From Escherichia coli (GTDB lineage Bacteria > Pseudomonadota > Gammaproteobacteria > Enterobacterales > Enterobacteriaceae), in the NCBI RefSeq assembly GCF_050920415.1, contig NZ_CP169309.1: a stretch of DNA of 64,000 bases; one strand, written 5' to 3'. Positions within the stretch are counted from its first letter, which is position 1. Every line of letters starts with the position of its first letter. Shown here piece by piece: positions 2 through 43,940 of this stretch. The position numbers and the translations under genes are program-made. Below the pieces are notes generated by a model. The model saw only the letters and a program-made list of their open reading frames with translations, did no database searches and was not told where the DNA came from.

Positions 2-823
2 ATTGCCTCCGGTAGCGCGATGATTGTTGATCTGAATACCAACAAAGTGATCTATTCGAACCACCCGGATCTGGTGCGTCCGATTGCGTCTATCAGCAAA
101 TTAATGACCGCGATGGTTGTGCTGGATGCACGATTGCCGCTGGATGAAAAACTGAAAGTGGATATCAGCCAGACGCCGGAGATGAAAGGGGTCTATTCGC
201 GCGTACGACTGAACAGCGAAATCAGCCGTAAAGAGATGCTGTTGCTGGCGCTGATGTCTTCAGAAAACCGCGCGGCGGCAAGCCTTGCGCACCATTATCC
301 CGGTGGTTACAAAGCCTTTATTAAGGCGATGAATGCGAAAGCGAAATCGCTCGGAATGAACAACACGCGCTTTGTTGAACCGACCGGATTGTCGGTGCAT
401 AACGTTTCAACCGCTCGTGATTTAACCAAACTGCTTATTGCCAGCAAACAATATCCATTGATCGGGCAGTTAAGTACTACCCGGGAAGATATGGCAACCT
501 TCTCTAACCCGACGTATACGCTGCCGTTCCGCAATACTAACCATCTGGTGTATCGCGATAACTGGAATATTCAGTTAACCAAAACCGGTTTTACCAATGC
601 GGCGGGCCATTGTCTGGTGATGCGCACGGTTATCAATAATAAACCGGTGGCGCTGGTAGTGATGGATGCGTTTGGCAAATATACCCATTTTGCCGATGCC
701 AGCCGCCTGCGTACCTGGATTGAAACCGGTAAAGTGATGCCTGTTCCGGCAGCAGCGTTGAGCTATAAAAAACAAAAAGCCGCCCAGATGGCGGCGGCGG
801 GGCAGACGGCGCAGAACGATTAA
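2..823 (+). CDS. pbpG: D-alanyl-D-alanine endopeptidase PBP7; 5' end lies upstream of the window
   Basis: ORF track 20..823; reading frame continues from base 2 ([11 protein letters not shown]...); translation matches recalled E. coli PbpG including SxxK active-site motif (SISK); stop TAA 821-823. Confidence 0.9.
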
Positions 824-825
824 GG

Positions 826-1108
826 GTAGGCAGGATAAGGCGTTTACGCCGCATCAGGCATTCGGAGCACAATGCCTGATGCGATGCTTGCGCATCTTAT
901 CAGGCCTACAAACGTGACGCGTCCGTAGGCAGGATAAGGCGTTCACGCCGCATCCGGCATTCGGAGCACAATGCCTGATGCGATGCTTGCGCATCTTATC
1001 AGGCCTACAAACGTGACGCGTCCGTAGGCAGGATAAGGCGTTCACGCCGCATCCGGCATTCGGTGCACGATGCCTGATGCGATGCTTCTATTTGCATCAG
1101 GCATCCAG
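826..1108. repeat. BIME/REP cluster: three tandem ~99-bp units of REP-type palindromes
   Basis: Unit gtaggcaggataaggcgtt(t/c)acgccgcatc(a/c)ggcattcgg...gcctgatgcgatgcttgcgcatcttatcaggcctac begins at 826, 925 and 1024; lies between convergent pbpG and dld. Confidence 0.85.
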
Positions 1109-1114
1109 CCGTAT

Positions 1115-2830: not shown

Positions 2831-3025
2831 TTTCCACTCCTTGTGGTGGCGAAAAAATATCACAAACTAGCATAGCGCCTTGTATGACAATTCAGCGAGT
2901 GAATATTTTGAAAATTCAGACAATAAACTGAGCATTCTTTTTCTCTCTCCATCATGCTTATGGCAAACTACGGTTTTTGCACCATTTTCGCTGCCTCGTC
3001 GGGCAACAGAGGAAGAATAATCCAT

Positions 3026-5323: not shown

Positions 5324-5332
5324 TGCTTTAGT

Positions 5333-5365
5333 AAGGGCGCGACGTCTGCGCCCTTTAAGTATTTC
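5333..5365 (+). terminator. bglX rho-independent terminator
   Basis: GC stem aagggcgc / gcgccctt with 7-nt loop, followed by a T-rich tract. Confidence 0.6.
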
Positions 5366-5471
5366 TCTGATTCTGCAATTGAATCCCTCCGCTCAGGCTA
5401 ACCCCGCCATTATCAACTATGCTTTTCTCTTAATTCGCTGAAAACAACAGTAAAAGAATGAGGAAAGCATC

Positions 5472-6389
5472 ATGCCACTCTCAAAGCTCTGGGCAGGTTC
5501 ACTGGTTTTGTTGGCAGCCGTGAGCCTGCCGCTACAGGCGGCTTCTGCCGTTAAAGTCGGTTCAAAAATCGATACCGAAGGCGCGCTACTCGGCAACATT
5601 ATTTTGCAAGTGCTGGAAAGCCACGGCGTACCGACGGTGAATAAAGTCCAGTTGGGAACCACGCCGGTGGTGCGCGGCGCGATCACTTCTGGCGAGCTGG
5701 ATATCTATCCGGAATATACCGGTAATGGCGCTTTCTTCTTTAAAGATGAAAATGATGCGGCGTGGAAAAATGCCGGACAAGGCTACGAGAAAGTCAAAAA
5801 GCTCGATGCAGAGCAAAACAAGTTAATCTGGCTAACGCCCGCGCCTGCAAATAACACCTGGACCATCGCCGTGCGTCAGGATGTGGCAGAGAAAAATAAA
5901 CTCACTTCGCTTGCCGACCTGAGTCGTTATCTGAAAGAGGGTGGCACCTTCAAACTGGCAGCCTCGGCTGAGTTTATCGAACGCGCCGATGCCTTACCCG
6001 CTTTTGAAAAAGCCTACGACTTTAAACTCGGTCAGGATCAGTTGCTGTCACTGGCCGGTGGCGACACGGCGGTGACAATCAAAGCTGCTGCCCAGCAAAC
6101 ATCCGGCGTTAATGCGGCGATGGCTTACGGCACCGACGGCCCGGTCGCGGCGCTGGGGCTGCAAACCTTAAGCGATCCGCAAGGCGTGCAACCTATCTAC
6201 GCGCCTGCACCAGTGGTGCGTGAATCGGTGTTGAAGGAGTATCCGCAAATGGCACAGTGGCTACAGCCAGTCTTCGCCAGCCTCGATGCAAAAACATTGC
6301 AGCAACTGAATGCCAGCATTGCTGTGGAAGGACTGGATGCCAAAAAAGTGGCTGCCGACTACCTGAAACAAAAAGGGTGGACGAAGTAA
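5472..6389 (+). CDS. osmF: ABC transporter periplasmic glycine-betaine-binding protein
   Basis: 305 aa with signal peptide; first gene of four co-directional ABC-transporter genes matching K-12 osmF-yehYXW. Confidence 0.9.
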   Translation: MPLSKLWAGSLVLLAAVSLPLQAASAVKVGSKIDTEGALLGNIILQVLESHGVPTVNKVQLGTTPVVRGAITSGELDIYPEYTGNGAFFFKDENDAAWKNAGQGYEKVKKLDAEQNKLIWLTPAPANNTWTIAVRQDVAEKNKLTSLADLSRYLKEGGTFKLAASAEFIERADALPAFEKAYDFKLGQDQLLSLAGGDTAVTIKAAAQQTSGVNAAMAYGTDGPVAALGLQTLSDPQGVQPIYAPAPVVRESVLKEYPQMAQWLQPVFASLDAKTLQQLNASIAVEGLDAKKVAADYLKQKGWTK

Positions 6390-6395
6390 TTTCCC

Positions 6396-7553
6396 GTGAC
6401 TTATTTCCGTATTAATCCTGTTCTGGCGCTGCTGCTGTTGCTGACGGCAATCGCAGCGGCGCTGCCGTTTATCAGTTACGCGCCTAATCGTTTAGTCTCG
6501 GGTGAGGGGCGTCATCTCTGGCAGCTGTGGCCGCAAACGATCTGGATGCTGGTGGGCGTTGGTTGCGCCTGGCTGACCGCCTGTTTTATTCCCGGTAAAA
6601 AAGGCAGCATTTTTGCACTCATTCTGGCGCAATTCGTCTTCATATTGCTGGTGTGGGGCGCGGGAAAGGCGGCGACACAACTGGCGCAAAATGGCAGTGC
6701 GCTGGCGCGTACCAGCCTCGGCAGTGGTTTCTGGCTGGCTGCGGCGCTGGCACTGCTGGCCTGTAGCGATGCCATCCGCCGAATCTCCACGCATCCGCTG
6801 TGGCGCTGGTTGTTGCATATGCAGATTGCCATTATTCCGCTGTGGTTGCTGTATTCCGGCGCGCTTAACGATCTCTCGCTAATGAAAGAATACGCCAACC
6901 GTCAGGATGTGTTTAATGACGCGCTGGCGCAACATCTGACGTTGCTGTTTGGTGCGGTGCTGCCTGCGTTAGTGATTGGTGTGCCGCTGGGCGTCTGGTG
7001 CTACTTTTCCACTGCGCGGCAGGGGGCGATTTTTTCTCTGCTGAATGTCATTCAGACCGTGCCTTCGGTGGCGCTCTTTGGCCTGTTGATTGCGCCGCTT
7101 GCCGCGCTGGTTACGGCCTTTCCGTGGCTGGGAACGCTCGGCGTAGCAGGAACCGGAATGACACCCGCACTGATTGCCCTGGTGCTCTATGCCTTGCTGC
7201 CGCTGGTGCGCGGTGTGGTAGTCGGCTTGAACCAGATCCCGCGCGATGTGCTGGAGAGCGCCAGAGCGATGGGCATGAGCGGGGCGCAGCGATTCCTGCA
7301 TGTTCAGTTACCGCTGGCGTTACCGGTATTTCTGCGCAGCCTGCGGGTGGTGATGGTGCAAACCGTCGGCATGGCGGTGATTGCGGCGTTAATCGGCGCA
7401 GGTGGTTTTGGTGCGCTGGTTTTCCAGGGGCTGCTAAGCAGTGCCATTGATTTAGTGTTGCTGGGGGTGATCCCGGTAATCGTACTGGCGGTGCTGATCG
7501 ACGCACTGTTCGATCTGGTTATCGCACTGCTGAAGGTGAAAAGTAATGATTGA
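6396..7553 (+). CDS. yehY: ABC transporter permease
   Basis: 385 aa, multi-TM; GTG start at 6396; stop overlaps yehX start. Confidence 0.85.
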
Positions 7554-8472
7554 ATTTAGCCATGTCAGCAAACTGTTCGGCACACAAAAAGCCGTTAACG
7601 ATCTCAACCTCAATTTTCAGGAAGGGAGTTTCTCGGTGCTGATTGGTACATCAGGCTCCGGTAAATCCACCACATTGAAAATGATCAACCGTCTGGTAGA
7701 GCATGACAGCGGAGTGATCCGCTTTGCCGGAGAAGAAATTCGCTCGCTGCCAGTGCTGGAGTTACGCCGCCGGATGGGCTATGCCATTCAATCTATTGGC
7801 CTGTTTCCCCACTGGAGCGTGGCGCAAAACATTGCTACTGTGCCGCAATTACAAAAATGGTCGCGGGCGCGGATCGACGACCGTATCGACGAATTAATGG
7901 CGCTACTGGGGCTGGAGCCAAATTTGCGTGAGCGTTATCCGCATCAGCTTTCCGGTGGTCAGCAGCAACGTGTGGGAGTGGCCCGCGCGTTGGCTGCCGA
8001 TCCGCAAGTCTTACTGATGGATGAACCTTTTGGCGCACTGGACCCGGTAACGCGTGGTGCGTTGCAACAAGAGATGACGCGTATTCACCGTTTGTTAGGG
8101 CGCACCATTGTGCTGGTCACTCATGATATTGATGAGGCGCTACGGTTGGCAGAACATCTGGTATTGATGGATCACGGTGAAGTGGTGCAGCAGGGCAATC
8201 CTCTGGCGATGCTGACTCGTCCGGCGAATGATTTCGTCCGCCAGTTTTTTGGCCGTAGTGAACTGGGGGTCCGCCTGCTTTCGTTACGTAGCGTGGCGGA
8301 TTATGTGCGCCGCGAAGAACGGGCAGAAGGTGAGGCACTGGCAGAAGAGATGACGCTACGCGATGCGCTCTCCCTGTTTGTCGCGCGGGGATGCGAAGTG
8401 CTGCCGGTGGTGAACACGCAGGGCCAGCCTTGCGGCACGCTGCATTTTCAGGATCTGCTGGTGGAGGCGTAA
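7546..8472 (+). CDS. yehX: ABC transporter ATP-binding protein
   Basis: Walker [13 protein letters not shown] signature LSGGQQQRV, Walker B LLMDEP. Confidence 0.9.
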
Positions 8473-8476
8473 GCGT

Positions 8477-9208
8477 ATGAAGATGTTGCGCGATCCGCTG
8501 TTCTGGCTCATTGCTCTGTTTGTGGCACTGATTTTCTGGCTGCCTTACAGCCAGCCGCTGTTTTCTGCCTTGTTCCCACAACTGCCACGCCCCGTTTATC
8601 AGCAAGAAAGTTTTGCTGCTCTGGCACTGGCTCATTTCTGGCTGGTGGGAATTTCGAGTTTGTTTGCGGTGATCATTGGCACAGGTGCCGGAATTATTGT
8701 TACTCGCCCGTGGGGCGCGGAATTTCGCCCACTGGTGGAAACTATTGCCGCCGTTGGGCAGACTTTTCCGCCCGTTGCGGTGCTGGCGATTGCCGTTCCG
8801 GTGATTGGGTTTGGTCTGCAACCGGCGATTATCGCCTTGATCCTGTACGGTGTGCTGCCCGTCCTGCAGGCGACACTTGCCGGGCTGGGAGCGATTGATG
8901 TCAGCGTGACAGAAGTTGCGAAAGGTATGGGAATGAGCCGTGGTCAGCAACTGCGTAAGGTCGAGCTACCGCTGGCGGCTCCGGTGATTCTGGCGGGCGT
9001 GCGAACTTCGGTGATTATCAACATTGGTACGGCGACGATCGCCTCAACGGTAGGGGCCAGCACGCTGGGTACGCCCATCATCATCGGGCTTAGCGGATTT
9101 AATACCGCGTATGTGATCCAGGGGGCGTTACTGGTGGCACTGGCGGCGATCATCGCAGACCGCCTGTTTGAAAGGCTGGTGCAGGCGCTTAGCCAGCACG
9201 CAAAATAA
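8477..9208 (+). CDS. yehW: ABC transporter permease
   Basis: 243 aa hydrophobic protein, last gene of the osmF-yehYXW operon. Confidence 0.85.
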
Positions 9209-9296
9209 AGGTATAACCTGCGAGCATGACGCCACCAATTCCGCCTAACGCCATAAAAAGGAACAGGGCGATGACCCCAATTTTAGCTATGCGCAT
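9189..9296 (-). CDS. yohO: small membrane protein, 35 aa (below the ORF-track size cutoff)
   Basis: Minus-strand ATG at 9296, stop at 9189-9191; translation [35 protein letters not shown] matches recalled K-12 YohO; 3' end overlaps the yehW 3' end antisense. Confidence 0.75.
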
Positions 9297-21456: not shown

Positions 21457-21516
21457 CGCTTTTCCCGGTGGTAAGTCGTGTTGATAACGGGCAGTCGCAT
21501 CACTGCCCGCTGTGTT

Positions 21517-24500
21517 TTAATGGAAAATGACGTCAGGTGCGCTTAACGCTTCACTCAAATCAAACGTATCGAGTTCGGCAAAAGTGACAGATTTATTGTC
21601 ACGGTACACTCGAAGAGAACGGAAGCTCATTAGCGCTTTGCTATCAGCACTGTAGTGGTTAAAACCGGGTGAAAACTTAAGGACCAGCCGATACTCGCCC
21701 AGGTCATAGACACATGCGTCCTCAAAACCTGACTCCCAGCCTTTGTATCGCATTCCCATAAGTTGCCCAACGGTTGCGGATTTACCTTCCCAGCGAGTCA
21801 GGCTGTTACTGGCTGACTCGTCAGGTGTGAGCAGCACTGTGCGCCGCATCAACTGGCGAAAAGGCTGCATAATTTCGTAATCGGCAAAAACCTGTGCAAA
21901 TTCACTGCGCATTTCTGCTGTCATTTCTAACGGGTGGGCAATGCCAATCAGAGCATCCGCAGGCAGGTCAATTGGCTCATCTTGTGCGTTGCAGAACTCC
22001 CCCTCAGCGGCCACACGAAAGGCGTTGAGTAAACGACGCGGTTCATTTGCCGGATAAACCGCCCATATTAATCGCTGAGTAACCAGGCGAGTAAAGGGAT
22101 GATTAACAAACAGAGAATGAAAATCTGCCAGCGACCAGCGTCGGGTGGTGCGTAGGGCAGTTTCAAGACGCGGGAGCAGGTTTTTGCTCACCTGAGTGGC
22201 ATCTTTTTTTAGCCCTTTTAGTCGGGCCAGTGCCTCGGGCGCTTTCAGTTGATCGTCATCGGCGCGCAACCGGGGAACACTTTTCTGGCGAACGTTTTGC
22301 TGATCAAAGATAACCGGGTTGAGGTTTTCATCGAAGCGAACGGTAAACTGCCGGGGACCAAAATCAAATATCAACGCCTGCGGATCATCCAGGCCCAGTG
22401 TTGGGACTAATCTGTCCGCTAACTCTTCCTGGCTTAGTCCACGATTTTCTGCGACCACCTGAAGAAATTCCGCCGCGTTATCACGTAAGGGACGGGATTT
22501 CGCCCGTTGCGATATATGATGCAGCTGTATCAGTGCCATATCATTATTCATCTGAGTAAGTATATTCAGACCACTGACAGCACGGGCAGATTTGCCCTCT
22601 TGAGGCCAGGCAAGGATCTGTGTCGTCAGATTCCGAGCCGTGCTTTCGTCACCAAAGAGACTTAACGCCAAAAAAGCCCAGTTGTCTTTTGCGGGGGCGC
22701 CAGCCTGTTGCCAGGCGGTGAAGAGATCCCAGGCAAAAGCGGCCAGCGTTTGTGGCTGGCAGAACGTTTTCAGTTGTTCCAGCCCGCAATAAAAACGTCC
22801 GCCCTGGGTAAAGCGCAGCATTTCGCCAATAATTTCCAGAGCGTCATCAGTAACAGGTTGATTATTCGTGATAAGTCTCGGCCTGGACCACATTGCCGGA
22901 TGCCAGAAATCAGGGGCTTTGGGAATGCGTGCCGGGTAAATCTCTATTGGACTCTGTTTAAGTAATTGCTCCAGGGCAGGCCATACATCTGTACGCTGCC
23001 AACGATTGGCTACAGTTTGTAGCAATTCGCCATGTCCTTGTTCATACAGTAAACGCAGAGCATTGAGTGCCGCTTCGCTGTTATCGCCAGACCTGGCAAA
23101 GATTAATGGGATCAGCGCCGTAGCCGTATGCTCCGGCCATTGTAAAATCCACTGGCGAGCCAGATTACGCTGGCCCGCAAAACGATGCCAGACGCGGGCA
23201 ACGGGCAGCGCCAGTTCTGTTGCGCCAAAATGAATCAGCAGCGGAAATATCTCTTTGGGATGTCGGGCAAAGGCGGTGATTAATCCGGGCAAAGCATCGG
23301 TACCCAGCACACTTAACAGATATTCCACCCCGGTGTAATGAAAATCAGCCGCGACAATTTGTTGCCAGCACGATACTGCCATTTCGCGCGGCATTTGCGC
23401 GATAAGGTACAGATTCCACACTCCCCAACGCTTTTCATCAGTGTAATTAAATTTGCGTTGGAAAGTTCGCCACCCCTCCATCAACGCAACGCTATCTTGT
23501 GCCAGTAATGCGCTGGCGGCCTCTTCCCGGTAGTGTTTATTTTCAGTCTGTTTTGCCTGATAATTGAGCAATCTTCCTAATGAAGTATGTGTCTCTAGTT
23601 GATCGGTATCCAGAGCATCCAACTGTCCTGTGAGAATAAACTCATTAAACTTCCACCTGTGATCTTCAAAACCTAATTCCCGCAAGAAGGTATCGGTTCC
23701 TCTGCTAGCGAGACGTTCGTCAAAAGGCATGGCGCTAAAATGGCTGATTGTAGTTTGTTGTTCCTGCGTCCAGTGTTCCTGGGACGACCTGTACGCTTGC
23801 GGTACAAGCGTAAGTTCAGGTAGCGAAAAGTGAGTTATGGAAGTCTTTTTTCTGCCACGCCACGGTGGCGAAACGAGGATTTCAGGCAGACTGCTGTTAT
23901 CGGTGCTATCAATAACCGGTTTTGGCGAAGCCGATAAATAACTATTCACCACTGCCCGGGCTTGAGTACTTAACCACGGCATCACCTCTTCTGCCAGTTG
24001 TGGCTGCGATGCCATCAGCGTTTGTAACAGCGTATGCCAGTATTCATCACGTGCTTTTTGCTGTGCAGGCAGCTTTTTGTCTTCGATGATAGGATAACCA
24101 GGGCGCGCAGGGGGTTCTTTTAACGCCAGTAGTTCTGCCAGTGCGGCGAGCGTCGCATGGGGAAAGTTTTTACTGTATTTAGCCACACGTTGCAGGCTGG
24201 GTTTGTTTTTATCGGCAACTAACAGCAAGATGCGAATAACTTGCGGATGGTTAATTTGTACCAGCAGGCTACCGCAATCTTCTTTATGGGCATACATCGC
24301 GAGGCGTGGAACGGCTGCAATTCCCTGTTCGCGCAAAAGGGCGGCGCAGGCCGCGTAGCCGAAGTGGTTTTCATGCGACATGTAGCTGGCTTCGCGATCG
24401 CTAAATATATCCTGGCTCCAGTAGCGTTCGAGTTTTCTCACCGCTCTGGGGTCATTAGCAACAACTTTTAACCACTCCTTAGAATGAAAATGAGTCCGCG

Positions 24501-25167
24501 GGCATTCAAGGCCTACCAACTCATTGGCGATTTCTGGTTTCTCCGGGAGGATGAGTGCAATAAAAGGACGGCGAACTTTGGGTATTCCTGGCAGTGCGGC
24601 AATGAGTTTGTCGGCGCAACGCTGCCAGCAGCTTTCCTCTGCCAGAGAGAGATGCTTACGCAGTCGGAGATCGAATTCGTTATAGGTTTCTGAGCGATAA
24701 CCATAGCCATAACCATCGTCCTCGTTCTGATACTGCAATGTTACTACCAGAGGATCACTCTCATAACACCGTACAATAAACTGGCGTGCAATCACCACTT
24801 CAGTCGCATATTCCAGTCCCTCTTGTTGGACGATTTCATCGAGCAACTGTTGGCTATCATTTTGCGCGATACAGGCTAGCGCCGCCATTGTCCGGGCCGG
24901 AATTGAGGGGTTGTGCTCGCCTATCAAGTTGATGGCTTGCGTAATGGCCGACTGCCACTCCAGTGAAAAATTTTCATAACGCCAGACGATGTTTTTTTTC
25001 TTCTCAGCAATGTGTAGCAATTTATCACCCAGTGTCTGGATGAGGCTTTCAGTGATAACAGGCACCGGTTCGCCCGGCCAATTGCGATGGCTGAGTGGTG
25101 TTTTGCCTTTTTTATATTTCAGTTCCAGTTGGGCGTTATCCGCTAGCCACGGTAATTCCTTGTCCAT
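21517..25167 (-). CDS. yehI: large MolR/YehI-family protein (DUF4132-type), without the N-terminal WGR domain
   Basis: 1216-aa ORF; central and C-terminal regions share blocks with the two upstream paralogs (e.g. DFGPRQFTVxFDExL, HPLxxxLTxRLIW); starts 9 nt after the upstream paralog stop. Confidence 0.85.
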   Translation of the reverse strand: MDKELPWLADNAQLELKYKKGKTPLSHRNWPGEPVPVITESLIQTLGDKLLHIAEKKKNIVWRYENFSLEWQSAITQAINLIGEHNPSIPARTMAALACIAQNDSQQLLDEIVQQEGLEYATEVVIARQFIVRCYESDPLVVTLQYQNEDDGYGYGYRSETYNEFDLRLRKHLSLAEESCWQRCADKLIAALPGIPKVRRPFIALILPEKPEIANELVGLECPRTHFHSKEWLKVVANDPRAVRKLERYWSQDIFSDREASYMSHENHFGYAACAALLREQGIAAVPRLAMYAHKEDCGSLLVQINHPQVIRILLLVADKNKPSLQRVAKYSKNFPHATLAALAELLALKEPPARPGYPIIEDKKLPAQQKARDEYWHTLLQTLMASQPQLAEEVMPWLSTQARAVVNSYLSASPKPVIDSTDNSSLPEILVSPPWRGRKKTSITHFSLPELTLVPQAYRSSQEHWTQEQQTTISHFSAMPFDERLASRGTDTFLRELGFEDHRWKFNEFILTGQLDALDTDQLETHTSLGRLLNYQAKQTENKHYREEAASALLAQDSVALMEGWRTFQRKFNYTDEKRWGVWNLYLIAQMPREMAVSCWQQIVAADFHYTGVEYLLSVLGTDALPGLITAFARHPKEIFPLLIHFGATELALPVARVWHRFAGQRNLARQWILQWPEHTATALIPLIFARSGDNSEAALNALRLLYEQGHGELLQTVANRWQRTDVWPALEQLLKQSPIEIYPARIPKAPDFWHPAMWSRPRLITNNQPVTDDALEIIGEMLRFTQGGRFYCGLEQLKTFCQPQTLAAFAWDLFTAWQQAGAPAKDNWAFLALSLFGDESTARNLTTQILAWPQEGKSARAVSGLNILTQMNNDMALIQLHHISQRAKSRPLRDNAAEFLQVVAENRGLSQEELADRLVPTLGLDDPQALIFDFGPRQFTVRFDENLNPVIFDQQNVRQKSVPRLRADDDQLKAPEALARLKGLKKDATQVSKNLLPRLETALRTTRRWSLADFHSLFVNHPFTRLVTQRLIWAVYPANEPRRLLNAFRVAAEGEFCNAQDEPIDLPADALIGIAHPLEMTAEMRSEFAQVFADYEIMQPFRQLMRRTVLLTPDESASNSLTRWEGKSATVGQLMGMRYKGWESGFEDACVYDLGEYRLVLKFSPGFNHYSADSKALMSFRSLRVYRDNKSVTFAELDTFDLSEALSAPDVIFH

Positions 25168-25176
25168 GCTCTTTCC

Positions 25177-28100
25177 TTATTCAAACAGGGCTTCAATATC
25201 GTTAATCAACTCGCTGGCGGTGATGTCATCGAGTGCGGAGAACTGCGCTTCCTGTGTTGAATGACTCCCCCAGCCATAGCTTTCTGCTTTGCCTTCCCAT
25301 AGCCACAGCTTGCTTAAGAGTTGCTCGGCACTGAGTTCGGCTGGCGACATACCAACTGCAAATCCTTCATCGATTTCCATGATTAATGACCAGCGGCCCA
25401 GAGGTTTGATCATCCAGCCGATCCAGCCACCGTCCTGCGGTTCACCACGCATCCAGCCTTTATTCGCCAGCCCCATTACCCGACCGCTCGGGCATTTTCT
25501 GCCTGCCCAGCGGGTCAATTCGCTGGCATTGCGCTCGGTTTCTGTCAGGGCATAACTGTTGCGGTCGAGCTGGCGGAACGGCGGTAACAGCTCGTAGTCG
25601 GCAAAAAGCTGACCAAAGGCGGCGGCATCCGTCGGTGATATTTCCAGAACGTGAGGAATACCAATAGAGATATCGCCTTCCGGCAGGGTGAAAAGATCAT
25701 CGTCAGCGGTGCTGTAGCTGTTATCTTCCGCCACACGGAAGCACGCCAGTAACTGGTTGTCTGCGCTATAAATGCCCCAAATCAGACGGCGGGTTAAGTG
25801 GCAGACCAGCGGATGCTCAACCAGAAAGAGCTGAAAGTTTTCCGGCGACCAGCGGCGGCGCAGGCACATGGCGGATTCCAGCCTTGCCACCTGCTGGGCG
25901 GCAACGGTACGCGCATCTTTTTTCAGCAGTTTGTAGCGGTTAACTGCATCGTTCGCTTGGGTTTCATCATCGCTTTTGTTCGGTTTAGGCAAGTCTTTCA
26001 GGCGGCTGCCGGAAACATCGCGCACAAACGGTTTTAAGGTTTCATCAAAGCTGACGGTGAACTGCCGTGGGCCAAAATCCAGCAGCAGCGAACCGTTATC
26101 ATCCAGACCGAGATCCGGTGCTAACCGGTCTTCAAGCTCCGCCACCGTGAGTTCGCGGCTCTCGGCAATGTCGGCAATTTTTTCTTTTGCCCGCTCCTGT
26201 AATGCTTTGAATTTCAGTTTCTGGGCGATGCCGTTAAGCTGCATCAGGGCGATATCACTACCGATAGCAGCGAGGATATCCAGCCCGACGGTGGCGCGTT
26301 TATGCTGGGATTCACCAGGCCAGGCGCGGATTAATGGCGTCAGTTTGCGGGCGGTGTCATCGTTGCCAAGAACACCTAATGCAGTGAACGCCCAGCTCTC
26401 TTTCGACGGCGCGCCAGCGGTCTCCCAGGCGGTAAACAGATCCCAGGCAAACTCAGCCAGTGAGTCGGCAGTACAGGCGTCTTTCACCTGTAATAACCCC
26501 GGATACAGCGTATCTTCCTGAGGGAAGCGAAGCATTTCACCGAGGTGGAAGAGGGCGCTATCTGGCAGTGATTGGGCGTTTGCTTTTAATACCGGGCGCG
26601 TCCAGAGCGATGGCTGATAAAAGGCCGGAAGAGTGGGGATTTTTGTCGGGTGATTATCTAAGGGATCGAGCGCTAGCAGAGCGTTCACCGCGTCTGTTAC
26701 TTCCGGCTGGTTATAACGCCGGGCGATTTCTTGCAATAATGGCTGATGACCGTTTTCTGTAAGCATACGCAAGGCAGCGCGGGCGTTGTCCTGCGCTTCA
26801 CCGGCTTTGCCGAGCGCCGCGGGCAGCAGGCCGGTAATGGCGTGTTCCGGGTATTTCAGCAGCCAGCTACGGGCGTCTTGTCGTAGGGTTTTGAGTTTGT
26901 TGAAGGCGCGGGCGACGGCAGGAGCCAGCTCACTCGCTGCGAAGTAATTCGTTATGGGCAAGGCTTCCTGTGGATAGCGTGCAAGTGAGTTTACTAACCC
27001 AGGTAATCCTTTGAGTCCAAAATGTAACATGGCGTATTCGGTATCGGTATGCGGAGATACAGTAAGGGCATTCCATGCTCTTATTGCTTTCTCCAGCGGC
27101 AATGTTGTCAAAATCCCCAAATGCCAATAATGCCCGGTAGGTGAATGAAACACCTTAAATTCACTTATTAAGGTTGCATAATCTTCATTTAGCCATGCCT
27201 CAACTACCGCTTCGGGAGCTTTAATATATGTACCAGCGATCCGTCGTTGAAAACCCATCCTTGCCAACAGATTGGCAGTACTTTCTTCATGACTAACCGT
27301 GATGTGTTTTGAATACCAGATATATTTCGCCAAAAGTTGATTACTGATTTCTTCTGTCAGATAACTGATTGGCTCAATGCCTAATGGTGCTAAATCAAGC
27401 ACCGGAATCGACGATTTTTTCTTTTTCGAAAGCCATGGTGGGGAGACTACTATGGCCGGCAGTAGATCGGTGCTGGCATGGTTTGAGGGCTGTGTCAGTT
27501 GTTGCTGGCATGATTTCAGCACTGCAGCTGCGGGTGTCGAAAGCCAGGGAATGACCTGTTCTGCCAGTGCTGGTTGCGAGATAAGCATCGTCATTAGCAT
27601 AATGCGCCAACTATTCTCTTCTTTTTGCACTAGAAGTTCCGCCAGTGCTGCCAGTGCTGCGTGTGGGAACGCAGCGCAGGCTTTCGTCATTCGATCGTGA
27701 CAGCGTTTAGTATGCCCGGCTACACGTATAAGCAGTGTTAATGCGAACGGATGATTGATATGACGCAACACATCGGCGCAGTAGTCACTTGCGGCATAGG
27801 GAGCAAATCGGGGCAGGGCTGCAACACCTTGCTCCTGTAATACGGTGGCTGACCATATCGCACCACAATAGTAATCATCAAAAATGGCATATGGCTCGTG
27901 ATATTTTTCTAATGAGGCAAGAATGTGCTCATCAGTCGCCACTATTTTTAGCCACTCAAGCGAGGGTAATTTTTTTTTCCCCAGTAGACGCTGGGCAATT
28001 TCATGTGCAATTTCTGGTTTTTCGGGTAATAACATAGCAATTAATGGTTGCCGCCATTCTGGAATATGTGGAATTGCGGCAATAAGTTTTTGTGCACATT

Positions 28101-28971
28101 TTTGCCAGAGAGACTCTTCCGCCAGTGATAAATGTTTCCGTAGGCGTAATTCAAAACTGGAATATTGCTGCAAGTTATCAGGTGCAATGCCAGACGGCAG
28201 AATAATAATGATATTATTCGCATAATTCCATTCAATATCAATCTGTTGAAGGTGTATTATTACATCAGTAGCATATTCCAGACCGCCTTCCTGAATGATC
28301 TGATCCATAACATCCTCACGCACTTTATATCTTGTGCATTTCATTTCAAGTGCCGTGAGTACAGCCATTACTGGTGATGGTAACTGTGTTGTTTTCAGGC
28401 AGTCGATCTGACTGATCGCCTGGGCGACGGTGTTTTGCCATACTAAAGAACAGGCGCTGAAGTCAAATGTGGCTGTTTTATTATCCCGTTGCGACACGCT
28501 ACAGGCTAAGCGACGTAACTGGGTCAAGTTGTCTGCTTGCTGAACAGGAACTCCGGGAAAGCGGCGATGGCTTAACGTGGTGTGTACAACTTCGGGCGGA
28601 AAAACGACAGCAATATCTTTCGCCAGCCACGGTAAAACATCATCTGTATTTTTGTCAGCCACACGGGCTTCTGCTACGCAAAAGGGTTGTTCCTGAATAA
28701 TGGTGGATAAGGCCGCTACCTTGAGAGAATCCGTTACCGTTTGGGAAGGTTGCAAAGAATTATCCTTCGCTTGCTCCACATACCCCTTCTTCACCTTCTC
28801 CGCAATCAGCCTCAGTTCCGCTTTTTCCGCCGCCGCAGCATCAGCAAAGCTTTTTACCTGGCTTTGCCCGTTGGTACTGACTTTGCCCCAACTAATATGC
28901 AGCTCGTTTCCCTGTTGCTCCACTGCCCAGAATTTATGTGATTTTTCGTCCTGATAAATATAGGTTTTCAT
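25177..28971 (-). CDS. molR: MolR-family protein with N-terminal WGR-like domain (intact; recalled as a pseudogene in K-12)
   Basis: 1264-aa ORF; N-terminus MKTYIYQDEKSHKFWAVEQQGNELHISWGKV; 12 nt downstream of the upstream paralog. Confidence 0.8.
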   Translation of the reverse strand: MKTYIYQDEKSHKFWAVEQQGNELHISWGKVSTNGQSQVKSFADAAAAEKAELRLIAEKVKKGYVEQAKDNSLQPSQTVTDSLKVAALSTIIQEQPFCVAEARVADKNTDDVLPWLAKDIAVVFPPEVVHTTLSHRRFPGVPVQQADNLTQLRRLACSVSQRDNKTATFDFSACSLVWQNTVAQAISQIDCLKTTQLPSPVMAVLTALEMKCTRYKVREDVMDQIIQEGGLEYATDVIIHLQQIDIEWNYANNIIIILPSGIAPDNLQQYSSFELRLRKHLSLAEESLWQKCAQKLIAAIPHIPEWRQPLIAMLLPEKPEIAHEIAQRLLGKKKLPSLEWLKIVATDEHILASLEKYHEPYAIFDDYYCGAIWSATVLQEQGVAALPRFAPYAASDYCADVLRHINHPFALTLLIRVAGHTKRCHDRMTKACAAFPHAALAALAELLVQKEENSWRIMLMTMLISQPALAEQVIPWLSTPAAAVLKSCQQQLTQPSNHASTDLLPAIVVSPPWLSKKKKSSIPVLDLAPLGIEPISYLTEEISNQLLAKYIWYSKHITVSHEESTANLLARMGFQRRIAGTYIKAPEAVVEAWLNEDYATLISEFKVFHSPTGHYWHLGILTTLPLEKAIRAWNALTVSPHTDTEYAMLHFGLKGLPGLVNSLARYPQEALPITNYFAASELAPAVARAFNKLKTLRQDARSWLLKYPEHAITGLLPAALGKAGEAQDNARAALRMLTENGHQPLLQEIARRYNQPEVTDAVNALLALDPLDNHPTKIPTLPAFYQPSLWTRPVLKANAQSLPDSALFHLGEMLRFPQEDTLYPGLLQVKDACTADSLAEFAWDLFTAWETAGAPSKESWAFTALGVLGNDDTARKLTPLIRAWPGESQHKRATVGLDILAAIGSDIALMQLNGIAQKLKFKALQERAKEKIADIAESRELTVAELEDRLAPDLGLDDNGSLLLDFGPRQFTVSFDETLKPFVRDVSGSRLKDLPKPNKSDDETQANDAVNRYKLLKKDARTVAAQQVARLESAMCLRRRWSPENFQLFLVEHPLVCHLTRRLIWGIYSADNQLLACFRVAEDNSYSTADDDLFTLPEGDISIGIPHVLEISPTDAAAFGQLFADYELLPPFRQLDRNSYALTETERNASELTRWAGRKCPSGRVMGLANKGWMRGEPQDGGWIGWMIKPLGRWSLIMEIDEGFAVGMSPAELSAEQLLSKLWLWEGKAESYGWGSHSTQEAQFSALDDITASELINDIEALFE

Positions 28972-28983
28972 TGCTAAATCCTT

Positions 28984-31900
28984 TTAATCAAACAATGATT
29001 CAATGTCGTTAATCAGCTCGCTGGCGGTGATGTCGTCGAGCATGGAAAAAGTAAGTAAAGGTTGTTTACCGTAGCGATCATCTGGCGAGGTGATTTTTAC
29101 GCTTTCAACAGGTAACAGGTCGCCATAACCTGTTTCACCATAAATTAATGAAAAATGTTCTGTTTCAAGTTCGAGATCGCCATAAGGGGTAGATTTGCGC
29201 ATCGCATAGACGCTGCCGCTTTCTTCCAGACGTTGCCAGCCTCGGCGCTCTAGCCCGACAATACGTCCGGCCTGACAGAGCTGTCCTTGCCAGCGTGTCA
29301 GGTCGTGGGTATTCCGTTCATTATCAGCAAGACGATAACTACCACGATCGAGCTGTTGGAAGGGGGGAAGCAGTTCGTAATCAGCGTAAATTTGCCTGAA
29401 TGCAGCGGCAGATTCAGGGGGGATCTCCAGCACATGCGGTATACCGATGTTTCCTGCTGGCAGCGTGAATAACTCATCCTGCGCATCGCTGTAAGTGCTG
29501 TCTTCTGCGACCCGGAAGCAGGCAATCAGCGTGTTTTCCTCAGTATATACTCCCCATAACAGCCGTCGGGTTAAGTGACGTACCAGCGGATGCTCCACCA
29601 GAAACAGGCGGAACTGTTCTGCCGTCCAGCGTCTGCGCTGGCACATAGCCTGCTCCAGACGATCAATCTGCTGACTGGCAATGGCGCGCACATCTTTCTT
29701 CAATTGTTTGAAGAGGTTAACGGCGTCAGTTGCCAGTGTTTTATCATCGCTCTGATTTGGTTTGGGTAAATCTTTCAGGACTTTGCCGTTTGCATCGCGC
29801 ACTACAGGTTTTAAGGTTTCGTCAAAAACAACGGTGAATTGACGTGGGCCGAAATCCAGTATCAGCGAGCCACTGCTATCAAGCCCTAAATCTGGAGCCA
29901 GGCGGTCTTCCAGTTCAGCCATAGTCAGCCCACGGTTTTCAGCAACTATGTTGATTTTCTCGCGGGCATGTTCCTGTAATGCAACGAATTTAATCTTTTT
30001 CGCAATGCCATTAAGCAGCATTAGCGCAACATCGCTGCCAATATCAGCTAATACATCCAACCCGGACACCGCCCGTTTATGCTGTGATTCCCCAGGCCAG
30101 GCACGGATAAGCGGGGTTAATTTACGCGCGGTGTCGTCATTGCCTAAAATCCCCAGCGAAGTAAATGCCCAGTTTTCTTTTGCGGGTGCGCCAGCTTCTG
30201 TCCAGGCGGTATACAGATCCCAGCCAAAGTCAGCCAGTGATTCGCGAGTGAAGGTTTCTTTGATGATCTCCAGCCCAGCGTAGGCGGTAATGTCGCGAGG
30301 AAAGCTCAGCATAGTGCCCAGGTGGCGCATAGCGTCATCTGGTAGAGGCAGGTTGTTACTTTTAAGCCGTGGTCTGCGCCATAAGGTGAACTGATAAAAG
30401 CCGGGCAGTGGGGCGATTTTTGCGGGATATTCTTCCAGAGGATCGCTATCAAATAATGTTGCCAGCGCAGCTAAAACATCAGGTTGATTATATCCTTGCG
30501 CGATTTTCTCAATCGTTTCTCGCTGGTTTAATTTCACTAGCAGTCGGAGCGCCTGGCGGGCATATTCCCGATTTTGGCACGGTTTGCCCAGCGCCAAAGG
30601 CAGTAGCCCGGCGGCGGCATGGCGCGGGTTATTTGCCAGCCAATTAACGGCATCCTTGTAAGCCATTTTTTTCTGTAACCGCTGCGCCATTGGTAAGGCT
30701 AGTTCACTGGCCCCAATAAAGAGGGTGAATATCCACAGTCGTTGATGATCTCGTTGCAAGCAGGTCATAAACGCAGGAATGGCCGTACTACCAAAAACTG
30801 CCAGAATCTCTTTCTCACCTGAATATCGCTCCTCAATGATTATTTGGTTGAGAAATGAAATCGCCTGTTGTCCCGGTAAGTAACAAAGCGCAGATAAATT
30901 CCAGCTTTTGTTGGCATTGTTGTGATATTTCGCAAACTCAGCTTTTAGTGCTGGAAAATCAAAGCGCAACAAGGCATCAACAGCGCTTTGCGGTATGTGT
31001 TTTTTTTCATGTAAGTCATCTTCGCAATGCAGCCATTCATTAAAACCTAATTGCCAAAGGATTTGTTGTTCTGGTGTAAAAGGAATGAAAGATGTCTCCC
31101 AGCTTTCTTTTTCAATTAGTGGTAGGTCGGTAAATAAGGTTTGCTGTGATGCCTGATATTTCGCGATTTCACTGAATCTGGATATGTCAGTGTGACTGAT
31201 TAACTCTGTAATTCCAGGTGTGATGTCAGTGACGGAAGGGATGGGAAGTACCGGTAAATCAAATACGGGTATTACATTCTTTTTCTTATTTATTGCCCAC
31301 GGTGGAGCGACAAGCAGCTCTGGCAACATATCCGCAGTGGCATACTCATATTCTTCAGCTACTGACTGAGGACGACATTCAGATAAGATGCCTGCCGCTT
31401 TAGCATTAACCCAGGGAATGACGTCGCGTACTAATTCTGGCGTGACGGTAATCAGTTTGACAAGCGCTTTACGCCACTCTTTGTCTTCATGTATTGCCAG
31501 CAAAGTAGCATAAGCGGCAATAGCCGCAGCGGGATGTTTTTGGCAGGCTTTGCTTAAGTATTCCAGGTGCTTTTTCTTGCCATTTACACCGAGGATCAGA
31601 ATTTGAATCGCATCCGGGTGATTCGTTTTCCATAGCCATTTGACAAGATCTTCAGTCTCGCTGATGCGCTCGAAGAGATAAGTGGGATTGTCAGAATGCT
31701 CTTCCACAAACTCAGTAAGTATCCGGCTTACACCGCGCCCCCCATTATTTGCCAGCAACATTGCCAGATAAGCGCGAAAATCACGATACAACGGTGGGAA
31801 GTCGTATTTTTCTGCTGTAGTCAGAGCTATATCATCGGTTACTACCAGTCTTAACCAGGTTATCGCCGGAACGTTTTGGTCTGCATAATGTAGCGCCATA

Positions 31901-32781
31901 GCATTGGCAATATCCGGGCGTTCAGGGAGCAGTAACGCGGCAAAAGGTTGCCGTGCTGGGGATAGCGTCGGAATAGCAGTAAGCACTTTATCCACACAGC
32001 GTTGCCACTCATCTTCTGAAGCGAGTGAAAGATGATGACATAGACGTTGATGCCAACTCGGTAGCGATTCTGCTTCGTGATTAGGTGGAATGATGGTGGT
32101 TACTGCGCCTTTTACTGGTTTATATTTGAGTTGAAGAGCGAGAAGGGCGATTTCAACGGCACTTTCCAGACCACAGCGAATGACTAAGTCATCGACCAGT
32201 TCATCTTGAGAGTAAGAGTTCCAAAAGCCCCAGAGCAATGCTGCATCAGATTGCGCACTCCCTGTCGGTTGATTACCCTGAACTCGCATTTGTAACTCAG
32301 CAAAAGCCTGCTGCCAGTTTTCTGGATAAGAGCGGTAATTATTGTCGGGGTCATATGCCCTCGTGTTATTCGCGATGCGCTTCCATATTTGGCCATCTTT
32401 GTGCAGATAATTGATATCTCTGGGGCGAGAGCGATGTGGAAAAGCAAATCGGTTAATATCGTCGGTTAGCGGAATGGCTGCATCATCAGCCAGCCATGGG
32501 CGTTTGTTTTTACTCTCAGGTGAAGTTTCAACGTCAGGAGTGACTTTGGTGACGGGGGGGATATGCACGTTTGCCGAAGCGTCTTCCACATAGCCTTTTT
32601 TCGTTTTCTCAGCGATAAGCTTCAGTTCCGCTTTTTCCGCCGCCGCAGCATCCGCAAAGCTTTTTATCTGGCTTTGCCCTTGGGTGCCAACTTTTCCCCA
32701 ACTGATATGCAACTCGTTACCTTGCTGCTCCACCGCCCAGAATTTATGTGATTTTTCGTCCTGATAGATATAACTCTTCAT
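28984..32781 (-). CDS. second MolR-family paralog with N-terminal WGR-like domain
   Basis: 1265-aa ORF; first ~65 aa and last ~25 aa nearly identical to the 25177..28971 paralog, central region diverged. Confidence 0.8.
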   Translation of the reverse strand: MKSYIYQDEKSHKFWAVEQQGNELHISWGKVGTQGQSQIKSFADAAAAEKAELKLIAEKTKKGYVEDASANVHIPPVTKVTPDVETSPESKNKRPWLADDAAIPLTDDINRFAFPHRSRPRDINYLHKDGQIWKRIANNTRAYDPDNNYRSYPENWQQAFAELQMRVQGNQPTGSAQSDAALLWGFWNSYSQDELVDDLVIRCGLESAVEIALLALQLKYKPVKGAVTTIIPPNHEAESLPSWHQRLCHHLSLASEDEWQRCVDKVLTAIPTLSPARQPFAALLLPERPDIANAMALHYADQNVPAITWLRLVVTDDIALTTAEKYDFPPLYRDFRAYLAMLLANNGGRGVSRILTEFVEEHSDNPTYLFERISETEDLVKWLWKTNHPDAIQILILGVNGKKKHLEYLSKACQKHPAAAIAAYATLLAIHEDKEWRKALVKLITVTPELVRDVIPWVNAKAAGILSECRPQSVAEEYEYATADMLPELLVAPPWAINKKKNVIPVFDLPVLPIPSVTDITPGITELISHTDISRFSEIAKYQASQQTLFTDLPLIEKESWETSFIPFTPEQQILWQLGFNEWLHCEDDLHEKKHIPQSAVDALLRFDFPALKAEFAKYHNNANKSWNLSALCYLPGQQAISFLNQIIIEERYSGEKEILAVFGSTAIPAFMTCLQRDHQRLWIFTLFIGASELALPMAQRLQKKMAYKDAVNWLANNPRHAAAGLLPLALGKPCQNREYARQALRLLVKLNQRETIEKIAQGYNQPDVLAALATLFDSDPLEEYPAKIAPLPGFYQFTLWRRPRLKSNNLPLPDDAMRHLGTMLSFPRDITAYAGLEIIKETFTRESLADFGWDLYTAWTEAGAPAKENWAFTSLGILGNDDTARKLTPLIRAWPGESQHKRAVSGLDVLADIGSDVALMLLNGIAKKIKFVALQEHAREKINIVAENRGLTMAELEDRLAPDLGLDSSGSLILDFGPRQFTVVFDETLKPVVRDANGKVLKDLPKPNQSDDKTLATDAVNLFKQLKKDVRAIASQQIDRLEQAMCQRRRWTAEQFRLFLVEHPLVRHLTRRLLWGVYTEENTLIACFRVAEDSTYSDAQDELFTLPAGNIGIPHVLEIPPESAAAFRQIYADYELLPPFQQLDRGSYRLADNERNTHDLTRWQGQLCQAGRIVGLERRGWQRLEESGSVYAMRKSTPYGDLELETEHFSLIYGETGYGDLLPVESVKITSPDDRYGKQPLLTFSMLDDITASELINDIESLFD

Positions 32782-41935: not shown

Positions 41936-41962
41936 CCCCCTCATGATGAGGGGGCTTTTTTT
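41936..41962 (+). terminator. yeh fimbrial operon terminator
   Basis: Stem ccccctca / tgaggggg followed by cttttttt. Confidence 0.7.
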
Positions 41963-42299
41963 AGCGATGATAAAAAATCTCACCATCGTAGGCTTTAATG
42001 ATTTTACCGTCGGTGTCGCTGATCAACACGTACGCGCCACCCATATAGGTCCAGTGCGTCCCGGCATCAGGCGCGGGCAGGTTACGTAACTGCCACTGCT
42101 TAATGTTGTACTCATCGGTGCGGTACATCTCTGGGACGGTATCGCCTGGTTTGAAATGCTTAAAGTCAGCAATGAAACTGCTTAACTCATACTTAGAAAT
42201 TCCCGAGGTATTGGTCGAACCCGCGGTGGCTGGTGCGGCCCAGGCGGCACTGGTAACCAGCAAAAGCACACCCAGCAACATCTTATTTTTAATGGTCAT
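41961..42299 (-). CDS. rcnB: periplasmic modulator of Ni/Co efflux
   Basis: ORF 41961..42479; start at ATG 42299 (MTIKNKMLLGVLLLVTSAAWA...), 112 aa; downstream of rcnA. Confidence 0.85.
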   Translation of the reverse strand: MTIKNKMLLGVLLLVTSAAWAAPATAGSTNTSGISKYELSSFIADFKHFKPGDTVPEMYRTDEYNIKQWQLRNLPAPDAGTHWTYMGGAYVLISDTDGKIIKAYDGEIFYHR

Positions 42300-42503
42300 A
42301 AACTCTCCACTTTGGGGATCTGTAATATCAGTCGCATATCTTTCCTGCCATACAATATAACTGACAAGCGATATTTTGTTAGTGATCCCATGATTTCGTA
42401 AAAAGTGTAAATGAAAGGATGCCCTAAAAGCATCCTTAGCGAGCAGAGAGCCAGCGGAAATAGCTGATTTAAGAATCATCCTGGGCTGAAGATAACATGC
42501 AGC

Positions 42504-43325
42504 CTATCGCATAATGCCCATAAAGCCATGCACGCCCATATACACCCCAACTAAGCCAATCAACAGACTGGAAAAATAGGGGGCACGTTTAGCGAGAGTG
42601 TTAAATCCGCTCCAGCGTTTTGCGACCTGCTGAACGCTGATTGCTGCGCCAACGCCTACGGTGACTAGCGTTAACGCCAGGCCAATGCTGAAACTGACGA
42701 CCAGTGTTGCGCCTAGTGTCAGGGCTTTCAACTGAATACAAATCAACAGCACGGTAATTGCTGCCGGGCAGGGGATCAGTCCACCTGTTAACCCAAACAA
42801 TAAAATTTGCCAGTTGGTCACTTCTCTGCCATTGAAGCGTCGTTTGATGTCATTGGCATGGGCTCGTGCATGAGCATCCTGATACTCCCCATGTTCGTGA
42901 TGGTGATGATGTCCATGGTCGTGGTGATCTTCGTGATCGTGATGATACTCATGATCATGCCCGTGCATATTCTCCAGCCAGTTGCGTTCGCCGCGCCAGG
43001 TACGCCAGAACATCCAGAACGCGGTGCCAATAATGATCACCGCGGAAATCAACTGGAGCCACGGTTCTGCAGATTGAGCAGTAAAACGTTTGCTGATCAC
43101 CATCCCGCCAAAGGCAATCAACCAGACCACCGCGGTATGCGAAATGGTTGCTGCCAGTCCGAGCATCACCGCCTGTTTAATGGTGCCTTTGATGGCGATG
43201 ATAAACGCCGCCATCATCGTTTTTGAGTGCCCTGGTTCCAGGCCATGAAGCGCACCAAGTAAGATGGCGCTGGGAATGAAGAACCAGGCGTTTCCTTGCT
43301 GAAGAAGAGTGGTAAATTCGGTCAT
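42504..43325 (-). CDS. rcnA: nickel/cobalt efflux permease
   Basis: 273 aa membrane protein with histidine-rich loop (HGHDHEYHHDHEDHHDHGHHHHHEHGEY). Confidence 0.9.
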   Translation of the reverse strand: MTEFTTLLQQGNAWFFIPSAILLGALHGLEPGHSKTMMAAFIIAIKGTIKQAVMLGLAATISHTAVVWLIAFGGMVISKRFTAQSAEPWLQLISAVIIIGTAFWMFWRTWRGERNWLENMHGHDHEYHHDHEDHHDHGHHHHHEHGEYQDAHARAHANDIKRRFNGREVTNWQILLFGLTGGLIPCPAAITVLLICIQLKALTLGATLVVSFSIGLALTLVTVGVGAAISVQQVAKRWSGFNTLAKRAPYFSSLLIGLVGVYMGVHGFMGIMR

Positions 43326-43372
43326 GATAATAATTCTTAGTATTAATTCGGCAATCCGATTCTACTCCCCCC

Positions 43373-43407
43373 CAGTACCTGATACTACCCCCCAGTAGAA
43401 TAATAGT
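43373..43407. promoter_or_regulatory. tandem RcnR operator sites in the rcnA-rcnR divergent promoter region
   Basis: TACT-C7-AGTA at 43373..43387 and TACT-A-C6-AGTA at 43393..43407, matching the known TACT-G6-N-AGTA RcnR site (reverse strand). Confidence 0.75.
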
Positions 43408-43445
43408 GCTATGATTTTTCATGTTCTTGTTAACCAGGTGTTGCC

Positions 43446-43718
43446 ATGTCTCATACAATCCGTGATAAACAGAAACTGAAAGCGCGTGCCAGTAAGATTC
43501 AGGGTCAGGTCGTGGCGCTCAAGAAAATGCTCGACGAGCCGCACGAATGCGCAGCTGTTCTACAACAGATTGCTGCTATCCGTGGCGCGGTAAACGGCCT
43601 GATGCGCGAAGTGATTAAGGGGCATCTGACGGAACACATCGTTCACCAGGGGGATGAGCTAAAACGTGAAGAAGATCTGGATGTCGTTCTGAAGGTGTTG
43701 GATTCATATATCAAATAA
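43446..43718 (+). CDS. rcnR: Ni/Co-responsive repressor (CsoR/RcnR family)
   Basis: 90 aa; divergent from rcnA. Confidence 0.9.
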
Positions 43719-43804: not shown

Positions 43805-43940
43805 CGCAACCAAACGACTCGGGGTGCCCTTCTGCGTGAAGGCTGAGAAATACCCGTATCACCTGATCTGGATAATGCCAGCGTAGGGAAGTCACAGACC
43901 ACCAGGTCATTGCTTCTTCACGTTATGGCAGGAGCAAACT
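43805..43940 (+). promoter_or_regulatory. TPP (THI-box) riboswitch in the thiM leader
   Basis: Aptamer ctcggggtgcccttctgcgtgaaggctgagaaatacccgtatcacctgatctggataatgccagcgtagggaag at 43818..43891, with conserved CUGAGA and ACCUGAUCUGGAUAAUGCCAGCG elements; sits directly upstream of the thiM SD and ATG. Confidence 0.9.

Follow-up and report, generated by a model that had tools for sequence, protein, structure and literature searches.

The two short palindromes that lie between rcnA and rcnR in the stretch of Escherichia coli DNA analyzed here (64,000 nt; hereafter "the window," to which all positions refer) are, by their sequence, the already known tandem RcnR operator common to the divergent rcnA and rcnR promoters, because both sites fit the published motif and a K-12-derived strain has exactly the same 35-bp core. 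The one new finding is that a few percent of natural strains carry a first C run of another length, the range being six to nine C. We consider it highly probable that the element is a tandem RcnR operator whose sites sit over the promoters of rcnA and rcnR and whose C7 tract is prone to slippage, giving rise to length variants that would probably weaken repression and that do not persist in the long term.

Identity and setting of the operator pair

Site 1 occupies positions 43363–43377 and reads TACTCCCCCCCAGTA (TACT-C7-AGTA; TACTGGGGGGGAGTA on the G strand), site 2 occupies positions 43383–43397 and reads TACTACCCCCCAGTA (TACT-A-C6-AGTA; TACTGGGGGGTAGTA on the G strand), and the two are separated by the 5-nt spacer CCTGA (43378–43382); these features and the homopolymers within them are given without regard to strand. 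The C7 homopolymer of site 1 (43367–43373) is polymorphic in length in E. coli (C6, C7, C8, and C9), and the C6 homopolymer of site 2 (43388–43393) is less variable. The sites start 20 bp apart and together span the 35-bp core (43363–43397), which on the plus strand is found in the context ...GATTC TACTCCCCCCCAGTA CCTGA TACTACCCCCCAGTA GAATAA.... A repeat finder recovered the two sites as a 15-nt direct repeat with a spacing of 20 nt, together with an outer inverted repeat, ATTCTACT/AGTAGAAT, that flanks the pair (43359–43366 and 43394–43401). The original prediction described two tandem TACT/AGTA palindromes 5 bp apart, with a C7 tract in the first as opposed to N plus C6 in the second, and both features can be read directly in the sequence. 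The range given for them, 43373–43407, has the right length but is shifted by +10 relative to the true pair; it starts at the final C of the site-1 tract and ends 10 nt beyond site 2.

When TACTNCCCCCCAGTA was searched with up to two mismatches allowed, sites 1 and 2 were the only matches in the 64-kb window. Since the chance expectation was 0.11 matches and none of 100 shuffles contained two or more, the operator pair stands above chance. The motif TACT-G6-N-AGTA was matched with 0 mismatches at site 1 and at site 2. Runs of seven or more G or C occur twice in the window, as the C7 of site 1 and as a G7 at 32554–32560. A G-quadruplex reading of the operator pair was dropped because the pair offers two G runs only.

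The published RcnR operator is TACT-G6-N-AGTA in two copies (Iwig and Chivers, 2009, and Blaha, 2011, as cited in passages of PMC7055735 and PMC3902906), and the title of Blaha 2011 (Biochimie 93:434) refers to a shared operator through which RcnR represses both rcnA and rcnR. Passages of PMC3902906 describe the rcnA-rcnR pair as two type 1 sites in tandem, each bound by one tetramer, with RcnR making minor-groove contacts at the TACT/AGTA arms and reading the A-form-like shape of the unbroken G/C tract. According to a passage of PMC7105576, apo-RcnR represses rcnA, and Co(II) or Ni(II) releases RcnR. Binding of apo-RcnR and its release by Ni(II) or Co(II) were reported for the K-12 sequence, and the window shares its core with the K-12-derived strain J53 base for base. 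In the published account, one RcnR tetramer occupies each TACT-G6-N-AGTA site when metal is absent, contacting the TACT/AGTA arms and reading the unbroken tract between them. The bound repressor silences rcnA (hence rcnAB) and rcnR itself, and binding of Ni(II) or Co(II) releases RcnR and switches efflux on. The assignment of the palindromes to RcnR in the original prediction is well supported by the J53-identical core, by the fit of both sites to the published motif, and by the RcnR protein encoded in the window (WP_000019944.1). As a textbook metal-sensor site, the operator itself adds nothing new, and the rcn operator is already in use in a cobalt-induced expression system.

Both operator copies are intergenic and lie between rcnA on the minus strand (42504–43325; nickel/cobalt efflux protein, 273 aa) and rcnR on the plus strand (43446–43718; Ni(II)/Co(II)-responsive repressor, 90 aa). 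The identities of the two genes were obtained by matching ORFs to NCBIfam models. RcnA scored 554.6 bits against NF007454 (nickel/cobalt efflux transporter model) and RcnR scored 197.3 bits against the RcnR equivalog NF011613 (cut-off 138), confirming the predicted placement of the palindromes between divergent rcnA and rcnR. The cognate repressor is encoded beside the operator pair, and its protein, WP_000019944.1, is annotated in J53 and in nearly all strains fetched. Downstream of rcnA is rcnB (41961–42299, minus strand), which corresponds to a gene annotated in related strains and would encode the accessory subunit. On the other side, rcnR is followed by a TPP riboswitch upstream of thiM (43810–43906; Rfam RF00059, 71.5 bits), and then by thiM and thiD. 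The annotation of a closely related genome shows the same layout, which is standard for E. coli. No Rfam family overlapped the rcnA-rcnR intergenic region.

Several peculiarities of the locus were also observed. Positions 43300–43718 represent a rare, divergent rcn allele, for which 15 of 5,361 genomes show at least 99% identity over 161 nt, and the rcnR side has 14–15 differences in 330 nt relative to the eight other E. coli strains aligned. The 273-aa RcnA has one residue fewer in its His-rich loop than the 274-aa form of O111 strain 11128, and several substitutions besides. The spacer between rcnB and rcnA (42300–42503) is unusually long at 204 nt, and the offset relative to strain 2013C-4282 shifts by 14 nt across the locus, being −14 up to ~42,500 and 0 from ~42,551 onward.

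Putative promoter layout and conservation across species

Putative promoter elements were placed on the basis of cross-genus conservation. A −10-like hexamer directed toward rcnA, TAGAAT (43359–43364, minus strand), overlaps the outer arm of site 1 and is the candidate rcnA −10; read from 43364 down to 43359, it forms part of the outer inverted repeat noted above. The consensus at this point is AtTcTACT, conserved at 70–90% across 70 species, whereas adjacent bases diverge. Read toward rcnA, the bases adjoining site 1 are conserved as AGTAGAAT. In the direction of rcnR, an extended −10-like element, TGCTATGAT (43407–43415, plus strand), follows site 2 by ~10 nt, in which case site 2 would cover the −35 region of the putative rcnR promoter. 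TGnTATAAT-like elements (TGCTATAAT, TGGTATAAT, and TGGTAGAAT) are found at a similar position after site 2 in many aligned genera. The probable rcnA ribosome-binding site, 8 nt ahead of the start codon, is TTCTTA on the plus strand (43334–43339; a minus-strand feature, UAAGAA on the rcnA mRNA). Most aligned genera retain UAAGAA beside the start codon. With site 1 overlapping the putative rcnA −10 and site 2 covering the putative rcnR −35, bound RcnR would be expected to keep RNA polymerase off both promoters. A scan with the sigma-70 consensus had instead put the −10 of rcnA so close to the gene that 2 nt separate it from the start codon, and had set the rcnR promoter within the coding start. 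Both were judged implausible, and the cross-genus-conserved elements were preferred.

Conservation of the operator was assessed by scanning one genome per species for RcnR relatives, which gave 80 loci ranging from Escherichia to Morganella, Edwardsiella, and one Vibrio. Exact TACTCCCCCCCAGTA was present upstream of rcnR in 70 of the 80 loci, and in most loci TACTACCCCCCAGTA followed 5 nt past site 1. Flanks and spacer sequence diverge freely between genera, yet the spacer is 5 nt long in nearly all loci and the 7-bp distance from TACT to AGTA is almost unchanged across the Enterobacterales and the one Vibrio. The tract of site 1 rarely had another length; Citrobacter sp. R56 showed C6, and C8 was found in both Enterobacter sp. 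R1(2018) and Morganella morganii Mm1. Site 1 is better conserved than site 2. The latter is conserved in most Enterobacterales, but some lack it or have a degenerate copy, among them Morganella, Erwinia psidii, and Edwardsiella anguillarum. Where a single site is intact (Morganella, Erwinia psidii, Edwardsiella anguillarum, and one Enterobacter), it is always the C7 site.

Other arrangements were encountered along the way. In nine genomes of Kosakonia, Phytobacter, and Enterobacter-like bacteria, a third operator-like element, AAACTCCCCCCCAGTT, occurs 5–7 nt past site 2, which suggests a three-site operator in this group. The locus also has relatives on plasmids; ~416 plasmid records match at 60–80% identity, most of them conjugative, with Enterobacter as the main source. 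The records sampled were 74.6% identical and annotated as rcnR/rcnA. The one plasmid fetched, IncHI2A plasmid pN18EC0432-1, carries the same tandem pair (TACTC7AGTA-AAATA-TACTAC6AGTA; 365–399 of the fetched locus), and paper titles and term matches link rcnR-rcnA to mcr-9 plasmids.

Tract-length variation in E. coli

The rcn region was present in 5,361 of 5,426 complete E. coli genomes. In a spread sample of these, net length change always fell inside a C tract, as in 2013C-3181 (C8), 30EVA2 (C9), and F5656C1 (AC5). Alleles were counted as exact matches to queries of 94–97 bases that carried 30-nt flanks in the K-12 background, a length at which a single difference drops a match below the 99% identity band. 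The wild-type count was taken at 95 bases, a 99-base query being unsuitable since a one-base insertion would still score 99.0%. Variant queries of 30 bases were dropped, as a calculated DUST score suggested that C7 and C8 would be masked and seeding blocked. The counts cover the ~70% of genomes with K-12-type flanks (~3,980 complete genomes), and the ≥99% band may hold a few partial alignments; for AC5, 24 records included 15 full-length exact matches.

Comparison of tract lengths across strains, the check that accompanied the original prediction, gave 3,737 genomes with the wild-type C7/AC6 configuration, 95 with C8 at site 1, 106 with C6, and 5 with C9. Site 2 was AC5 in 15 genomes and AC7 in 26. 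One common length thus accounts for ~94% of genomes, and one-base alleles are found in ~5% of E. coli. Variation is ~5 times greater in the longer C7 run than in the C6 run, which is what slippage would lead one to expect. Of the five genomes with C9, three or four belong to strains of a single "EVA" project. C9, a probable C10, and one AC7 came mostly from that project (30EVA2, 50EVAW, 64EVA, 50EVA, 30EVA1, and 101EVA), in genomes of differing size, and these alleles may be project-specific homopolymer artifacts.

The clustering of C9 and the probable C10 in one project is one of the observations that speak for treating all of the length variation as homopolymer sequencing or assembly artifact, with the tract fixed at C7. 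The error rate was gauged at a G7 run in the essential gene ispU (MG1655 195488–195494; ~5,230 genomes), which measures assembly error because a frameshift in an essential gene cannot be real. The G7 run of the window itself was rejected for this purpose because it lies in a dispensable DUF4132 gene; it falls inside a 1265-aa ORF, a DUF4132 protein according to the annotation of a related strain and one of three tandem DUF4132 paralogues there (21509–32781). At ispU, G7 was found in 5,184 genomes, G8 in 2–3, and the impossible G6 in 45, indicating that ~0.9% of "complete" E. coli assemblies contain a one-base deletion error at this 7-base G run. Four genomes (E2863, 2013C-3250, 2013C-3513, and RM10809-3) carry operator C6 together with ispU G6, so part of the −1 class is assembly error. 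Nevertheless, the −1 operator allele exceeds the ispU background ~3-fold (106 vs. 45; Fisher p = 5e-12) and the +1 allele exceeds it ~45-fold (95 vs. 2–3; Fisher p = 5e-32).

The distribution of the alleles among lineages also argues against a wholly artifactual origin. Nine O121 genomes drawn from several sources share C8 (RM8352, four CDC strains, 16-9255, FWSEC0006, 2002-3211, and GTVSS-020), and C6 is found in the O111:H- reference 11128, an early genome that we take to be Sanger-sequenced, as well as in 95NR1, 95JB1, RM9322, and 110512. C6 was seen across the sampled O111:H- genomes and C8 across the sampled O121:H19 genomes. Moreover, C8 was found on at least three rcnA haplotype groups that are 7–19 substitutions apart, which implies that it originated more than once. 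Both alleles also appear in metagenome contigs, many of which are named in the style of short-read assemblers. Among these, 110 of 120 matched loci were wild type, and the 60 contigs with an E. coli spacer included one with C8 and two with C6. The all-artifact reading is largely refuted by these data, and we regard it as scarcely credible.

Two further loci of individual interest were noted. In O111:H21 strains 15A and AMSHJX01, C8 is accompanied by an internal stop at rcnA codon 116 (rcnA at 69–893 of the fetched loci). C8 preceded the stop in this sub-lineage, judging from the fact that the closest intact haplotype, that of strain M8, also has C8. The combination could reflect compensation for derepressed efflux or could be a coincidence. 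In E. coli ETEC4085, an IS5-family element (694–1499 of the fetched locus) lies between the rcnA start codon and the operators and parts rcnA from its promoter and operator.

Interpretation and relation to known systems

The C7 tract looks like a real slippage hotspot under purifying selection rather than a demonstrated phase-variation switch. Recurrent one-base slippage would generate the C6, C8, and rare C9 alleles seen in a few percent of E. coli, and each one-base change would shift the TACT-AGTA spacing, the distance between the sites, and the −35/−10 spacer of the putative rcnA promoter. With half-site and promoter spacing both changed, repression would be weakened, and C6, C8, and C9 are therefore probably weaker operators. 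We infer that such alleles arise repeatedly and do not persist over long evolutionary time. Purifying selection is favored because one length dominates within E. coli and the 7 bp between the arms hardly change from genus to genus, and the pattern fits recurrent mutations that are mildly deleterious or briefly tolerated better than an evolved switch. The original suggestion that the C7 tract could vary by slipped-strand mispairing is borne out to the extent that C6, C8, and C9 occur in natural genomes above the error rate.

How much the length alleles matter to their carriers is a question on which several readings can be weighed. Tentatively, the site-1 tract may be a regulatory polymorphism, in which the heritable C6 of O111:H- and C8 of O121:H19 disturb the spacing of the RcnR half-sites and of the rcnA promoter and thereby set a new basal level of Ni/Co efflux lineage-wide, one C8 sub-lineage having subsequently lost rcnA by a nonsense mutation. 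It is somewhat unlikely, by our estimate, that the variants are real yet functionally silent, with RcnR tolerating a one-base change in spacing and the alleles drifting neutrally at a mutable run. Neutrality would sit well with the finding that rcnA, rcnB, and rcnR are intact, and RcnR unchanged, in the O111:H- and O121:H19 genomes fetched, and with a passage of PMC3902906 in which operators of the CsoR/RcnR family have 6–9 bp between their AT-rich arms. Were spacing free, however, an exact 7 bp in 70 of 80 species despite diverging flanks would be unexpected, as would the restriction of non-7 alleles to the tips.

That C7 is an evolved contingency locus, whose rapid and reversible slippage switches repression of rcnA on and off within a clone, as at the homopolymer promoter tracts of Neisseria, Haemophilus, or Bordetella, strikes us as very unlikely. 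As would be expected of a contingency homopolymer, the tract lies inside the operator and the putative rcnA −35/−10 spacer, its length is polymorphic beyond sequencing error, with C6 to C9 all existing naturally, and C8 arose more than once. Known G/C contingency tracts, however, are typically 8–9 or more bases long and usually vary by strain and species, whereas the rcn tract has a modal length of 7 that is shared by the great majority of genomes and conserved nearly without change across genera. In addition, the alleles appear stable within the listed O111:H- and O121:H19 genomes, being uniform rather than mixed across the sampled genomes of each serogroup, which counts against fast switching. 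A switch is disfavored, then, because contingency loci tend to have longer tracts and because the alleles found here are stable within lineages, and a slippage hotspot held in check by purifying selection remains the preferred reading.

The broader interest of these findings lies in the operator's mode of recognition. Because an unbroken G/C run is required, an operator read through DNA shape is mutable, and the survey shows near-perfect conservation of the 7-bp distance across genera and yet recurrent one-base alleles in E. coli. Carriers of the length alleles include two major Shiga-toxin serogroups (O111 and O121). If they alter rcnA expression, the supply of nickel to hydrogenase and the tolerance of cobalt and nickel would be affected in those lineages, and the alleles would also be relevant to reuse of the operator in engineered circuits. 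Literature searches on slippage, experimental evolution, and polymorphism of the rcnR operator found no relevant paper.

Among known systems, the pair resembles the type 1 sites of the CsoR/RcnR family in its single unbroken G/C tract, its TACT/AGTA arms, and its tandem arrangement, as described in passages of PMC3902906; CsoR proteins differ in using type 2 sites, whose tracts are interrupted and which bind two tetramers each, as opposed to the one RcnR tetramer per type 1 site. The rcnA-rcnR operator of K-12 is the same element, with an identical 35-bp core, gene arrangement, and RcnR protein, from which the window departs by four flank substitutions in 161 nt, all outside the core and one of them adjoining site 2 (TAGAAT vs. 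TAGATT in K-12). The tracts of Neisseria porA/opc and Bordetella fim are phase-variable poly-G/C runs located in promoter spacers, and the rcn tract resembles them in being a G/C homopolymer in promoter/operator DNA whose length differs among strains. Unlike these tracts, that of rcn is shorter (7), has one dominant length, and carries alleles that are serogroup-wide.
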